Source of the DNA: an uncultured bacterium
Lineage (GTDB): Bacteria; Vulcanimicrobiota; JAJTBE01; CAYNGH01
Assembly: GCA_964396845.1 (NCBI GenBank)
Contig: CAYNGH010000002.1
Span: forward strand, 17,760 to 81,759
Direction: 5' to 3'
DNA: 64,000 nucleotides
The notes beneath the pieces are model-generated. The model was not told the origin of the DNA and searched no databases. It was given only the letters and a program-made list of their open reading frames with translations. Every line of letters begins with the position of its first letter. Within the stretch, counting starts at the first letter, position 1. Shown here piece by piece: positions 26,838 through 31,830 of this stretch. A program made the position numbers and the translations under genes.

Positions 26838-27839
26838 TTAAGATTTGACTTTGTTTTCTGTTTTTGAATCTGCCGGGTTCTGCTCCTGATTCTTCAACGA
26901 CTTGAGCTTGGCTTTTACGCCCCGGTATGTTTTGATTCCTCCCAGAACCGCCCCGGCAATGCCCAGCCCGGCAATAGCCAGCCCCGAACCCAGAATCAAA
27001 CCCAGAGGCGCAAGGCTGATGGCCCCGGCAGCTGCTCCCAGGGCAACCTTTGAGCCGGTGCTTTTCAAGCCCTTTTCCAGATGTGGTTCCAATTTTTCAA
27101 CAGCCTTGTTGGAAGAATCTTCGATAAAGTTTTCCATTATGACCCGGATGGGATGCCCCAGGACTCCGCCGATGGCTCCCGCCCCAGCGCCAACCGCTGC
27201 TCCGATGCCCATGGCCACAGGCCCTCCCAGAATTCCGCTGACAGCTCCGGTGACAGCTCCCGCCATAGCTCCCAGGACTACCCGTCCCAAGGGCTTCACT
27301 GCGCTCCCGCCGATACCACCCGCAGCGGTGGAAGCAGACAGAAGGGCTGTGTTTCCCGTCAGCGCCGTAGCCAAAGCTCCTGTCAGGTAACCGCCATAGG
27401 TGCCGTCCCGGGTAGAAGCCCTGGTGCTGGAACAAAGTGTCCCCGTAGCTCCTGAGAATGCCCCGAGAATACCCCCCGCGGCAATTATGGGCAAAGCTAT
27501 GGCTCCGCCGGTAACTGCCAGCAGTGATGCCGATGCCCCGGCGCCAATGAGGGCCCCGGTAAGAGAACCAGCCCCCAGGGCCTTCAGATATGACTGGGTA
27601 GCTTTCCCCACCTTGCCCCCCACATATCCTCCAAGACCTCCCGATGCCGCGGTGATAGGGCCACCGGCAATATAACCGCTGATGGTCCCCGACATGGCCC
27701 CTGCCGTGGGGTTTGGCTCAAAACGATCCTGCCCGCTTACCCCGGGACGGGGCGTGGCGTATTCTTTGATCTTCCGGGGGATATTTTTAATTGTCTGGCC
27801 GATTTTCCTTATGTTCATTCCTGGGATAAATCCTTTCAA
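26838..27839 (-). CDS. Gly/Ala-rich glycine-zipper protein A (unknown family)
   Basis: 333 aa; ~70% G/A/S/T/L/I/V in long GxxxG/AxxxG tracts, polar N- and C-termini (K-rich tail). TTG start at 27839 or ATG at 27818. Confidence 0.6.
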   Translation of the reverse strand: MKGFIPGMNIRKIGQTIKNIPRKIKEYATPRPGVSGQDRFEPNPTAGAMSGTISGYIAGGPITAASGGLGGYVGGKVGKATQSYLKALGAGSLTGALIGAGASASLLAVTGGAIALPIIAAGGILGAFSGATGTLCSSTRASTRDGTYGGYLTGALATALTGNTALLSASTAAGGIGGSAVKPLGRVVLGAMAGAVTGAVSGILGGPVAMGIGAAVGAGAGAIGGVLGHPIRVIMENFIEDSSNKAVEKLEPHLEKGLKSTGSKVALGAAAGAISLAPLGLILGSGLAIAGLGIAGAVLGGIKTYRGVKAKLKSLKNQEQNPADSKTENKVKS

Positions 27840-27900
27840 AACAAGGACCCCGGCCCCGTAAGGTCACCCTATGCAGGGCCGGTCTGTCAAGTTGTTCGAA

Positions 27901-28992
27901 TCAGATGATTTTCCTGACCACATTAACCATGATGCCAACCAGAGCACCGCCGATGGCCCCCAGAACAGTGCCTCCCAGGACTTGTCCCACTGCTCCGAAC
28001 CGGGCTTTTGATTCCACCACGCTGGTGACATTCTCCAGAACCGGTTTTTCACTGCCGATGAGAGGATTTCTCATCTGGGGAGATTCCACGGTGACATCCT
28101 GCCGGGGAAGCTGGGATTCACGGAATACATCATAGCTGGACACGGTAGTTTCCTGGGGAATCTGGCCGATGGTCACCTGTTCCATTACCGGTGCCTTATA
28201 AGATATTTCCTTTGAAATGGTGTTTCCAGATTCCAGAACTGCTGCCAGGCCCCCCATGGTTGCTCCGCCGATGGCTCCCGCGGCAGTTGTTGCAGCTATG
28301 AGCTTGCTTTCACCTTGCAGATCCCGATTGCTTTCCCTGGGAACATGTTCTCCCTTTTTCATCACCTTGCGTCCCACCGCTATAGCTGTTGACACCCCAA
28401 GACCCGCTACGGCGCCGATGGCCATATGTTTGGCCCCTGCGATTACAGGATTGGAAACATCTGCAGTGTGAATCACTTCCCCGGTTTTCTCTGTGTATGA
28501 TCCAACCTTTTCATATTCTATCCTGGGAGAGAAGGAATGCTTCGTCCCCTGAAGATAACCCTGATTGTCGTTTATCTGCTGGGTGTGGTGTTCATAGCCC
28601 TTCATGGTGGGCCGGGTAATATCATGATCTATCTTGGTGATTTCTATCTTAGGCCGATCCAGGGCAGTGTTGATGACCTCATTGGCCATTCCCAATGCCC
28701 CGCCGATAGCAGCACCGCCGGCGGTGCCGAATATCACCAGCTCCTTATCGGAAAGATCCGATATGGAAGGCGGTTTGAGCTGTGAGAGATCTGCTATGTT
28801 TTCCACATCTTTTTTGATATCCTTGACATCGGATTCAATGCGGTTCAGCTCTTTTGATATTTCTCTGGCACCGGGGTGAACCGGGGTATATTCATCGCCG
28901 GTGGCGGTGGCAAAGTCCCTGTCGGTATTTCCTGTGACATTGGTCTTTACCCAGCTGCCGATTTTATTTGAAACGTTCTTGATGGAATCCAT
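27901..28992 (-). CDS. Glycine-zipper protein B with polar linkers and C-terminal hydrophobic anchor-like segment (unknown family)
   Basis: 363 aa; AGGAGG SD 7 nt upstream of ATG. Three or four short Gly/Ala zipper blocks (GTAGGAAIGGALG, AIGAVAGLGVSTAIAVG, AAGAIGGATMGGLAAV, GAVGQVLGGTVLGAIGGALVGIMV) separated by long polar stretches. Confidence 0.6.
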   Translation of the reverse strand: MDSIKNVSNKIGSWVKTNVTGNTDRDFATATGDEYTPVHPGAREISKELNRIESDVKDIKKDVENIADLSQLKPPSISDLSDKELVIFGTAGGAAIGGALGMANEVINTALDRPKIEITKIDHDITRPTMKGYEHHTQQINDNQGYLQGTKHSFSPRIEYEKVGSYTEKTGEVIHTADVSNPVIAGAKHMAIGAVAGLGVSTAIAVGRKVMKKGEHVPRESNRDLQGESKLIAATTAAGAIGGATMGGLAAVLESGNTISKEISYKAPVMEQVTIGQIPQETTVSSYDVFRESQLPRQDVTVESPQMRNPLIGSEKPVLENVTSVVESKARFGAVGQVLGGTVLGAIGGALVGIMVNVVRKII

Positions 28993-29028
28993 CTTTGAGC
29001 CTCCTTTTCTTATGCTTTTCAGGTCAGA

Positions 29029-30630: not shown

Positions 30631-30950
30631 AGTTGCACCTCCATAATATGTTTAAAAGTATTTTCCTAATATACATCATCTTATTATGACAGATGGGTCA
30701 GTCATTATCAATACTTCCGATGTTAACAAAATGTTACCAGATGCCAATAAACCAGAGTATTATCATACATGAACAAAGAGTTTCAAGTAAGCATGACTGG
30801 AAAGAAACATACACCCTGTACATGAGAGTGGAAACCAGATAAAAACAACCTTTTATGCTGGAATCATAACCCCGGCTGTTGCCCCTTGGAGATGAATCGC
30901 TGGGGAAGCAGAACTGTTGGATATAAAGACAAAGATCAATAAGTAATATC

Positions 30951-30976
30951 AAAAGGGCACCCCGTTTGGGATGCCC
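30951..30976 (-). terminator. Rho-independent terminator after glycine-zipper gene D
   Basis: Minus-strand RNA reads GGGCAUCCC-AAAC-GGGGUGCCC (9-bp stem incl. one G-U) followed by UUUUGAUAUU. Confidence 0.65.
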
Positions 30977-30999
30977 TGATATGACAATATTTTTACTGG

Positions 31000-31830
31000 T
31001 TATTTTGCTTCTTTGGCTTCCTGTTTTGGCTCACTTTTAACAAACTTGCCGATGAGCTTCTTTGCCCCGGACTTCACTTTATCGATGGCAGACCATGAAC
31101 CGCTGAATCCGCCGATTCCAAAAACCGTGGCCCCCACCGCAGCGCCGATGGCTGCAGGCCCTGTAATGGCCGCCAGGGTAACTCCCGTGGCCAGAAGCCC
31201 GGAAATAGTAGCCCCCGCTGCCATGACTCCAGCTCCTGTAATGGCTCCGCCGGCGACTCCCGCAACGGATCCCACCGCAGCGACTCCCAATTCTATCAGG
31301 CTGGGCTTATTCGGCACTCCCACGTCCCCTGCTTCTTCTTTCTGGGAAGGGGCTCCCAGGGTTTTTCTAACCCCAGTGCCTACAGCTTCAACAGTCCCCT
31401 TGCCCGCCTTGAACATGCCGTATCCCGTCAGGACTGAACCGGTCACAAGACCCGCCTTGCCCACCAGACCTGCAGTGGCAAAGGTCTTGCCGATGCCCGC
31501 TAAAACTCCCGTAGTGGTTACCGCGGCAACTGCCGGCCCCAGAGCTAATCCGGTAATACCCAGGGCAACGGCACCGCCGATGGCCCCGACATAAAGCCCT
31601 GCTGTTCCCAAGGCTCCGCCTGCTACCATTCCCAGGGTTCCCGTCAGGCGATCCGAGAACTTAATAATAGAACGTTTCCATCCCGCCATCTCCTTTGGCT
31701 TTGACTCCACCGAGCCTGACATCTTGTCAGTGGTGTTGATGGATGCTTCTTCCTTGACCGAAGGGTTGGCTTCCGCCTGCCGGGTCAAGGGTATATTTTG
31801 AGGGGTGTTTATCTTTCCTATGGAATCCAT
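31000..31830 (-). CDS. Glycine-zipper protein D (paralog of C N-terminal module)
   Basis: 276 aa; GGGAGGA SD; shares KPKEMAGWKRSIIKFSDR, GTAGLYVGA, GLLATGVTLAAITGPAAIGAAVGA and WSAIDKVK blocks with C; followed by a strong terminator. Confidence 0.65.
   Translation of the reverse strand: MDSIGKINTPQNIPLTRQAEANPSVKEEASINTTDKMSGSVESKPKEMAGWKRSIIKFSDRLTGTLGMVAGGALGTAGLYVGAIGGAVALGITGLALGPAVAAVTTTGVLAGIGKTFATAGLVGKAGLVTGSVLTGYGMFKAGKGTVEAVGTGVRKTLGAPSQKEEAGDVGVPNKPSLIELGVAAVGSVAGVAGGAITGAGVMAAGATISGLLATGVTLAAITGPAAIGAAVGATVFGIGGFSGSWSAIDKVKSGAKKLIGKFVKSEPKQEAKEAK

Follow-up and report, generated by a model that had tools for sequence, protein, structure and literature searches.

A conserved gene module of glycine-rich, predicted hairpin proteins in Vulcanimicrobiota, a candidate inner-membrane scaffold

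Four consecutive minus-strand genes, A to D, coding for proteins rich in glycine and alanine, were analyzed in a 64-kb stretch of DNA from an uncultured bacterium of the phylum Vulcanimicrobiota (contig CAYNGH010000002.1, positions 17 760 to 81 759; this whole stretch is called the window). As judged by sequence comparison, the cluster is made of three protein families (A, B and C/D); these families and the operon they form have no relative, detectable by our sequence and predicted-fold searches, among characterized families. The architecture is an undescribed one: two glycine-packed hairpin blocks of 70–75 amino acids (aa), with or without a long coiled coil, a partner with four helices and two beta domains, and a dedicated operator; the physical principle, glycine-mediated helix packing along with coiled coils, is already familiar. 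We suggest that the module could encode a regulated inner-membrane scaffold of oligomerizing hairpins and a coiled-coil rod, a reading to which we give somewhat less than an even chance; membrane location, topology, oligomerization, partner contacts and scaffold function are all features that we infer.

Four genes and three protein families

An original prediction, made from the letters of the DNA, had placed four open reading frames (ORFs) on the minus strand, and all four are present where it put them. In order of transcription these are D (31000–31830, 276 aa), C (29029–30630, 533 aa, with a GTG start) and B (27901–28992, 363 aa), as given in the ORF list, and A (26838–27818), 326 aa long if translated from the ATG at 27818 and 333 aa long with the TTG at 27839. 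The start of A is probably the ATG (MNIRKIGQ...) rather than the TTG, the same start being called in the syntenic contig L001 (labels of this kind denote loci compared with the window) and kept among A homologs; the GTG start of C is backed by its homology, at the N-terminus, to D as well as to the C protein of L001. A plausible Shine–Dalgarno sequence, claimed for every gene, is seen in front of D (GGGAGGA), C (GGAGGTG) and B (AAGGAGG), while that of A is weak. The intergenic distances given before, 37 and 62 bp, should read 36 bp between C and B, and 61 or 82 bp between B and A.

The coding status of the four frames was assessed by counting differences between the window and L001 separately for each codon position. 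For positions 1/2/3 the differences were 0.22/0.14/0.62 in D, 0.13/0.09/0.47 in C, 0.19/0.09/0.55 in B and 0.25/0.16/0.63 in A. Changes at third positions thus outnumber those at second positions 3–5-fold. The minus-strand frames of A–D are under purifying selection; they are genuine genes. Long Pro/Thr/Ala-rich ORFs do run over A, C and D on the plus strand, and one could suspect that the frames described here are low-complexity antisense or non-coding ORFs, the true genes being on the plus strand; plus-strand coding had in fact been named in advance as an observation that would count against the four genes. However, the codon-position divergence fits the minus-strand frames, thus the plus-strand ORFs are shadow ORFs. 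Furthermore, homologs are conserved down to 25–30% identity with family-specific invariant residues, and Shine–Dalgarno sequences and promoter candidates are situated on the minus strand. Divergence and homolog families together refute the artefact, whose probability we consider practically nil, and bear out the claim that these are real genes.

Comparison by BLASTP showed C and D to be paralogs (60% identity over 280 aa, E 5e-99). A, B and C/D showed no homology to one another in BLASTP or hhalign, and a relationship of A or B with C/D was accordingly rejected. The earlier description of four paralogous or related genes in a row has therefore to be narrowed to three unrelated families, with paralogy limited to C and D. 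The picture of proteins all dominated by Gly/Ala tracts also holds in part: glycine and alanine make up 36% of A, 34% of D, 22% of C (concentrated in the first 262 aa) and 19% of B. The description suits A, D and C residues 1–262 (the peptide quoted as an example, GGALGTAGLYVGAAGGAIALGIVGGALAPAIVAVTGGGLLAGIG, is C residues 70–113); it does not suit B, with four short segments of helix length, or the last 271 aa of C, a coiled coil rich in K, E and R. As for the GxxxG register, said to be common to all, in single sequences it exceeds chance in A residues 40–225 (22 GxxxG motifs versus 12 +/- 2.7 expected; glycine period of 3.95, reached in 0 of 500 shuffles), in the last helix of B (matched by 6 of 500 shuffles) and in block 1 of D (13 of 500), but not in the other blocks.

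Protein D consists of a polar disordered N-terminus (1–49), hydrophobic block 1 (aa 62–136), a charged linker (158–177), block 2 (aa 175–247) and a Lys-rich tail. The same two-block hairpin domain makes up the N-terminal part of C (aa 1–262; 29845–30630, minus strand), which is followed by a C-terminal tail rich in K, E, R, D, Q and N (aa 263–533; 29029–29844). The proposal that the hydrophobic regions are helical hairpins agrees with an AlphaFold2 (AF2) model of D built from 53 sequences (mean predicted local distance difference test, pLDDT, of 64), in which helices 50–93, 98–119 and 122–157 form a first hairpin region and helices 178–213 and 219–264 a second hairpin. Near-invariant residues in the alignment of 53 C/D members are almost all glycines (G82, G85, G86, G94, G127, G131, G138, G187, G191, G194, G195, G199, G229, G233 and G244), and glycine occupancy in the helices has a period of 3.75–3.95 residues (reached by 4–40 of 1000 shuffles), a pattern that one expects of helices packing via a small-residue face. 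Net-positive segments flank every hydrophobic block of D and C on both sides, and neither a signal peptide nor a lipobox could be read in the sequence; because of these charged flanks and the absent signal peptide, the simplest topology would have the N-terminus, linker and C-terminus, including the coiled coil of C, all on the cytoplasmic side. Cysteine is absent from B, C and D; A has one, near residue 129.

Conserved glycines of the GxxxG type on one helix face could alternatively belong to an inner-membrane channel or pore of the cell itself (for ions or solutes, for stress release, or as a holin-like lesion), with zipper helices of A, C/D and B lining an oligomeric pore and the coiled coil serving as its gate or sensor in the cytoplasm. 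In favor of a channel, membrane proteins that form channels are enriched in glycine zippers (Kim et al. 2005, as cited in bioRxiv 10.64898/2025.12.22.696046); moreover, expression appears to be tightly regulated via a predicted dedicated operator (see below). On the other hand, no conserved charged or polar residues that could line a pore stand out in the helix alignments, no structural match to any channel was found, lysis genes or transport partners are not linked to the module, and four to five proteins with a coiled coil of 270–400 aa exceed the needs of known small channels or holins. We hold the channel to be quite improbable.

The tail of C (271 aa) contains 61% K/E/R/D/Q/N residues, three glycines and one proline, and its hydrophobic residues recur with a period of 3.4–3.65 (reached by 1 of 1000 shuffles); composition and periodicity thus point to a coiled coil, ∼40 nm long if fully extended. 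It matches only generic coiled coils (SMC, dynein stalk, BICD). Relatives give sub-threshold matches to Filament; families of the crescentin/FilP type and intermediate-filament-like families have no membrane hairpins.

Protein B has an N-terminal helical region, four Gly/Ala-rich helices (82–110, 182–211, 228–256 and 334–362), two beta-rich domains (115–174 and 260–327) and a basic loop (208–230), which lies between helices 2 and 3 and is highly conserved. In the AF2 model made from 15 sequences (mean pLDDT 56) the beta domains have pLDDT values of 77–90 and the helices are of low confidence. B is predicted to be a membrane protein with four helices and two small beta domains, both of which would face the periplasm if the positive-inside rule is applied. 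The phylum has a cultivated member, which is a diderm (PMC9758169). An internal duplication of B (helix–beta–helix twice) was considered and dropped, the halves having no BLASTP similarity.

Protein A has a basic N-terminus, a glycine zipper of 186 aa (aa 40–225), an amphipathic polar helix (∼226–255), a last hydrophobic segment (256–298) and a Lys-rich tail. Its residues 183–230 align to one glycine-zipper unit of PF13441/PF13488 proteins (hhalign Prob 86%, E 5e-6), a likeness that we read as local motif resemblance, not family membership; the A profile also gives a weak match to SlyB-annotated proteins.

The unrelated families A and C/D both begin with a similar peptide, M-[DNKQ]-x-[IV]...N-[IV]-P (D 31789–31830, C 30589–30630, A 27777–27818), whose Pro14 is invariant in the A alignment and nearly so in C/D. 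Many relatives start with MKI/MQI/MNV-x-[ST], and several have a motif ‘EPKD(G/S)F’ or ‘DKV(E/D)L’ ahead of the first hydrophobic block. The shared peptide may be a common signal for targeting, export or chaperone recognition.

Homology to a characterized family, which had been named in advance as evidence against a new system, was sought by profile and structure searches, and none was significant. Pfam and NCBIfam scans of A–D and long relatives gave nothing above threshold; the best Pfam match was that of A to PF13436 (Gly-zipper_OmpA; 15.1 bits, E 0.02, cut-off 27), with B, C and D unmatched. A PADLOC scan of the same proteins gave no match, and the sole match in PHROGs was that of C residues 196–303 to an unannotated phrog (E 1e-4); accordingly, holins, tape-measure proteins and PADLOC effectors are not families to which these proteins could be assigned. 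Sequence-profile searches of PDB returned nothing for A and B, and only generic coiled-coil proteins for C/D. Membership among magnetosome proteins Mms/MamG/MamD is not indicated either: A–D have no LG dipeptide repeats, and a Pfam survey of the window, which found chemotaxis, flagellar, POR and housekeeping genes, found no mam genes. Literature on Eremiobacterota with glycine-zipper or coiled-coil proteins held no description of A–D that we could find.

Distribution, synteny and a shared palindrome

The families are rare. A search with D found only 4 clusters among 5.8 billion proteins, and a profile search with the C/D domain picked up 74 representatives out of 1.84 billion; family B has 15 clusters, all unnamed, and family A about 17 clusters, labeled Eremiobacteraeota. 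Taxon labels of homologs are Eremiobacterota, Eremiobacteraeota or Vulcanimicrobiota, except for one ‘Firmicutes’ and one ‘Synergistia’ metagenome-assembled genome. The locus labeled ‘uncultured Synergistia bacterium’ (L004, CAYSLJ010000082.1) is nearly collinear with the Vulcanimicrobiota loci L003 and L005 and codes for near-identical proteins, so its label is probably an error of binning or classification. Origin from a mobile element was also considered and dropped, as no relatives occur in IMG/VR viral contigs, INPHARED/GenBank phages or PLSDB plasmids. The module can thus be attributed to chromosomes of Eremiobacterota/Vulcanimicrobiota, and on the homologs available it appears restricted to them; the labels also make this phylum the most likely source of the window.

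The block recurs in at least eight distinct loci from genomes with 38–71% GC. L001 has the order seen in the window, porGDAB-D-C-B-A. In L003 and L004 the order is D-C-B-C2-A, between a giant FG-GAP/TPR gene and a gene for a collagen-like lipoprotein; L006, L007, L015 (high-GC) and L016 have C-B or C-B-C2; L013 has B-A, with B overlapping A. In L011 and L014 a gene for block 1 is followed by a gene for block 2 with the coiled coil, then by B and A. The recurrent core is therefore a C/D-type hairpin protein beside B, usually with A; B always adjoins a C/D-type gene. Flanking genes vary among loci, so the block is autonomous. The idea of a dedicated system is strengthened both by this synteny and by the operator-like palindrome described below. 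In L011 a toxin–antitoxin pair of VapBC type, with a PIN domain, separates B from A (11461–12073).

Since the C/D domain is split between genes in two genomes (L011 8192–9978 and L014 7080–8968; block 1 alone, then block 2 with the coiled coil), the two hairpin blocks are separable modules. Yet another combination is found in L008, where a B-family gene lies directly 5′ of a gene for a 1482-aa protein made of a block-2 anchor and about nine alpha-helical repeats of ∼130 aa (region 8874–14449, with P0059, P0066, P0068 and P0069). The repeats have no Pfam match, and the block-2 anchor is the only part in common with C/D; in the paralogs P0059, P0066 and P0068 the anchor is fused to variable C-terminal domains. 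By these sequence comparisons block 2 behaves as a portable, presumably membrane-embedded, anchor, and L008 looks like a second architecture with the same anchor and partner.

The four genes were supposed to form a single operon D-C-B-A. Instead, D has a promoter-like site and a terminator of its own. Upstream, a terminator-like hairpin with a T-run (31959–31990; this and the following elements are on the minus strand) was read in the sequence after porB, and its stem and T-run are kept in L001. It is followed by the operator-like palindrome GTTAACActaTGTTTAC (31910–31926) and by a sigma-70-like promoter candidate for D, TTGATT-18-AATAAT (31871–31900), found by a consensus scan. Directly after D, the scan showed a terminator-like hairpin (30954–30977) with a 10-bp stem, including seven GC pairs, and a T-run; L001 has a different hairpin with a T-run at the same spot. 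Then come a second operator-like palindrome, GGTAACAtttTGTTAAC (30722–30738), and a candidate promoter of C-B-A, TTGATA-17-CATAAT, which includes an extended −10 TG (30683–30711, also from the scan); its −35 element and TGTCATAAT are identical in L001. As the gap of 369 bp between D and C holds a terminator-like hairpin as well as a promoter-like site, D is probably a separate transcription unit.

The two palindromes share the consensus GTTAACA-N3-TGTTAAC and are situated ∼10 nt upstream of the −35 elements of D and C. The core, TAACANNNTGTTWA, has exactly two occurrences in the window, one ahead of D and one ahead of C, against 0.01 expected. With up to two mismatches allowed, the window and 16 other loci (265 kb) gave 12 matches, compared with 1.45 in shuffled sequences. 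Ten of the 12 are located 90–160 bp upstream of the first gene of a cluster, even where the proteins of a locus share only ∼30% identity with their counterparts in the window; outside the window the palindrome was found in L001 (11218–11234), L002 (8963–8979), L003 (9905–9921), L004/L005 (9704–9720), L011 (8064–8080), L014 (7025–7041) and L015 (1315–1331). Matches with two mismatches away from the clusters (L006 2471 and L013 5295) look like the ∼1.5 matches expected by chance. We conclude that D and C-B-A are probably separate units of one regulon of a single dimeric DNA-binding protein, with GTTAACA-N3-TGTTAAC as its probable operator. Regulatory RNAs were sought in the intergenic regions with Rfam, and no family matched.

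Two weaker matches to the palindrome, each with three mismatches, were seen elsewhere in the window. One (36717–36733), with a perfect GTTAACA half-site, lies ∼105 bp upstream of a gene for a glycosyltransferase of family GT2 (35275–36612, minus strand) that precedes the por operon, and may be due to chance. The other, a half-match (43131–43147), is in the divergent intergenic region of three consecutive ORFs at 41042–44355 (275, 363 and 368 aa), which are unmatched in Pfam and lie outside the families A, B and C/D. A functional link of the module to the adjacent por operon was rejected, since the two are separated by a terminator and most loci lack this neighborhood.

A possible scaffold and its competitors

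In the mechanism that we favor, one DNA-binding regulator would control an inner-membrane complex of A–D. D and the N-terminal half of C would each put two long Gly/Ala-rich hairpins into the cytoplasmic membrane, and the conserved glycines on one helix face would let hairpins pack side by side into homo- and hetero-oligomers. D, because it has its own promoter and terminator, could be the abundant building block. The coiled coil of C would serve as a cytoplasmic rod of ∼40 nm that links or spaces assemblies; B, with two periplasmic beta domains and a basic cytoplasmic loop, would couple the assembly to the envelope; and the glycine zipper of A would extend or cap the membrane array. Acting as a belt or lattice, the complex could then shape, stiffen or fence one patch of the inner membrane. 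One could speculate further that it is a phylum-specific, transcriptionally switched skeleton of the inner membrane, in which D, C and A polymerize in the bilayer, C rods cross-link them and B pins them to the envelope: a counterpart of MICOS or reticulons built from unrelated families, forming or fencing a specialized membrane domain or an internal membrane. This extended version we regard as doubtful. An oleosin-like, lipid-droplet reading of the 70-aa hairpins was rejected, as B, polytopic with periplasmic domains by prediction, argues for the cytoplasmic membrane.

Several observations weigh against a scaffold. Hydrophobic segments of the module are marginal, with Hessa-type sums of +0.1 to +4.2 kcal/mol (control helices taken from the window range from −3.9 to +3.0), and their insertion by the normal route is thus not assured; the hairpin arms, 30–36 residues each, exceed a normal membrane span. 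Confidence of the AF2 models is modest (means of 64 for D and 56 for B, B helices being below 50), and no structural analogue of the predicted models was found among PDB folds. Finally, no cytoskeletal, lipid-synthesis or cell-division gene is linked to the module in any locus.

Marginal hydrophobicity has been reported for membrane proteins exported by type III secretion systems (T3SS). Chlamydial Inc proteins, T3SS translocators and tripartite ClyA-family toxins are soluble proteins that are exported and then inserted into membranes. Hence A–D could be thought of as exported membrane-inserting effectors, or as a multi-component alpha-helical pore-forming toxin, made soluble, leaving by a non-Sec route (e.g. 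the flagellar type III apparatus) and inserting into a target membrane. Signal peptides are indeed absent; the disordered polar N-termini of A and C/D have the peptide M-x-I...N-I-P in common; the C-terminal domains on the block-2 anchor (P0059, P0066 and P0068) are variable; and the window encodes a flagellar FliF (508–2112). The C/D profile, moreover, weakly matches chains of NheB type and MakE (6tao_A, 6w08_A; E 4e-3 to 9e-3). However, the NheB and MakE matches do not extend beyond the coiled-coil part and are accompanied by dozens of generic matches to coiled coils, and Pfam gives no toxin or translocator match.

Tripartite toxins of the ClyA family (Hbl, Nhe, Mak, Ahl, Smh) do resemble the module in being encoded by adjacent genes for helical proteins with coiled-coil-like bundles and a hydrophobic hairpin. 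In those toxins, though, the hairpin is in the head of a five-helix bundle, whereas the hydrophobic blocks of D and C are N-terminal and not in the middle of a helical bundle, and A and B have no counterpart. The four proteins could not be placed in ClyA/Hbl/Nhe/Mak, having no Pfam match and only PDB matches with E about 1e-2 in the coiled-coil region; Foldseek with the model of D lists SmhB at no better than E 8.4 and a template-modeling score of 0.11. Chlamydial Inc proteins share with C/D an unstructured polar N-terminus, a large hydrophobic hairpin domain, a coiled coil facing the cytoplasm, and paralogs with variable C-terminal domains. The Inc hydrophobic domain, though, is a single bilobed stretch of 40–60 aa, in proteins that are secreted by T3SS and occur only in Chlamydiae (PMC3048545), while D and C have two separate blocks (∼75 and 73 residues) in a conserved multi-family operon. 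No injectisome genes were found in any locus examined, the window having flagellar fliF only, and no chaperone, secretion or immunity gene is linked to the module in any of the loci. Gene order and sequence are conserved, in contrast to polymorphic toxins, and B resembles a resident four-helix membrane protein obeying the positive-inside rule. All in all, export appears to us a distinctly unlikely explanation.

Returning to the scaffold, its closest functional parallels are membrane-shaping hairpin proteins. In mitochondria, Mic10 hairpins use glycine motifs to oligomerize and so bend the inner membrane (PMC4431669). As in the hairpins proposed here, both arms of the Mic10 hairpin have glycine-rich motifs and both ends are on the same side of the membrane; Mic60, a membrane-anchored coiled-coil partner of Mic10, would correspond to C as a partner of D. 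Mic10 differs in size (∼10 kDa) and in having one hairpin of normal span length with a GxGxGxG motif, in place of two blocks of 70–75 aa with GxxxG or GG spacing; A–D are 276–533 aa long, include two extra unrelated partners (A and B), and come from a bacterium outside the Alphaproteobacteria. A Pfam match to Mic10 was not seen at E ≤ 1, nor was any sequence or profile similarity. Reticulon-type proteins (reticulons, REEP/Yop1, FAM134B) place a hydrophilic linker, on the cytoplasmic side, between two hydrophobic hairpins, and in some members (FAM134B) a coiled coil follows; they curve membranes by wedging and oligomerization. These proteins are eukaryotic, however, their hairpins are about 30–35 aa in total (half the length of those in D and C) and not glycine-rich, and there is no sequence similarity.

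Lipoproteins of the SlyB/YfgH/PCP type (PF05433, PF13436, PF13441, PF13488) have GxxxG-repeat helices as well, and it is with these that the 48-residue stretch of A aligns. Glycine-zipper hairpins of SlyB join laterally to form rings (SlyB/YfgH rings) around a membrane patch or lipid nanodomains (bioRxiv 10.64898/2025.12.22.696046). The zipper unit is present in A, and C/D has a glycine pattern at the family level; still, A scores below the Pfam gathering threshold (15 bits versus 27), C/D and B are without any similarity, no lipobox cysteine or signal peptide is present, the proteins are 2–4 times longer, and their predicted location is the inner membrane, while SlyB is in the outer. Rings of this kind suggest yet another explanation, an inducible protection against envelope stress, in which zipper proteins would surround damaged patches of the inner membrane or client proteins, with the coiled coil as a stabilizer resembling PspA/Vipp1. 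The SlyB rings themselves, the likeness of A 183–230 to the PF13441/PF13488 unit, the weak match of the A profile to SlyB-annotated proteins, and a discrete regulon with its predicted operator are all in line with it; but the lipoprotein signal is absent, every Pfam match is below threshold, and neither PspA, ESCRT-III nor any other stress protein proved similar in the searches. This explanation, to which we assign a low probability, overlaps mechanistically with the scaffold and differs mainly in the timing of complex formation. Because membership in the Mic10 and SlyB families was tested and not found, the likeness of the proposed scaffold to both is, by analogy, one of ‘works like’ and not of ‘is a’.

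Genomic surroundings and significance

A gene for a 541-aa ankyrin-repeat protein (23531–25156, plus strand), with a central Glu/Lys/Arg-rich coiled-coil insert of ∼90 aa, is situated 1.7 kb from A. Ankyrin-repeat genes occur within a few kb of the module also in L001 (2829–3656) and L008 (5766–6398), which may be a coincidence in ankyrin-rich genomes. Farther away the window contains a chemotaxis cluster (8250–20429, minus strand) with a split or duplicated CheA (Hpt-P2-CheW and HATPase-CheW proteins), CheR, CheB and a methyl-accepting chemotaxis protein; a 646-aa HEAT-repeat protein is encoded between cheR and cheB, and a 650-aa protein of the cluster has three CheW domains.

Three new protein families are defined by this analysis: the C/D-type two-hairpin domain, the B-type and the A-type. 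The hairpin membrane anchor is apparently reusable, being found with other large domains too. Such hairpins, very long, Gly/Ala-rich and of marginal hydrophobicity, offer a useful test case for methods of predicting membrane insertion and structure, and the predicted operator GTTAACA-N3-TGTTAAC, being conserved, gives a handle on the regulator and the inducing condition. If the module does encode a machine for shaping or fencing membranes, it would be an independent solution to a problem solved elsewhere by MICOS, reticulons, SlyB rings and PspA/Vipp1, and it would come from a phylum with only one cultivated species.

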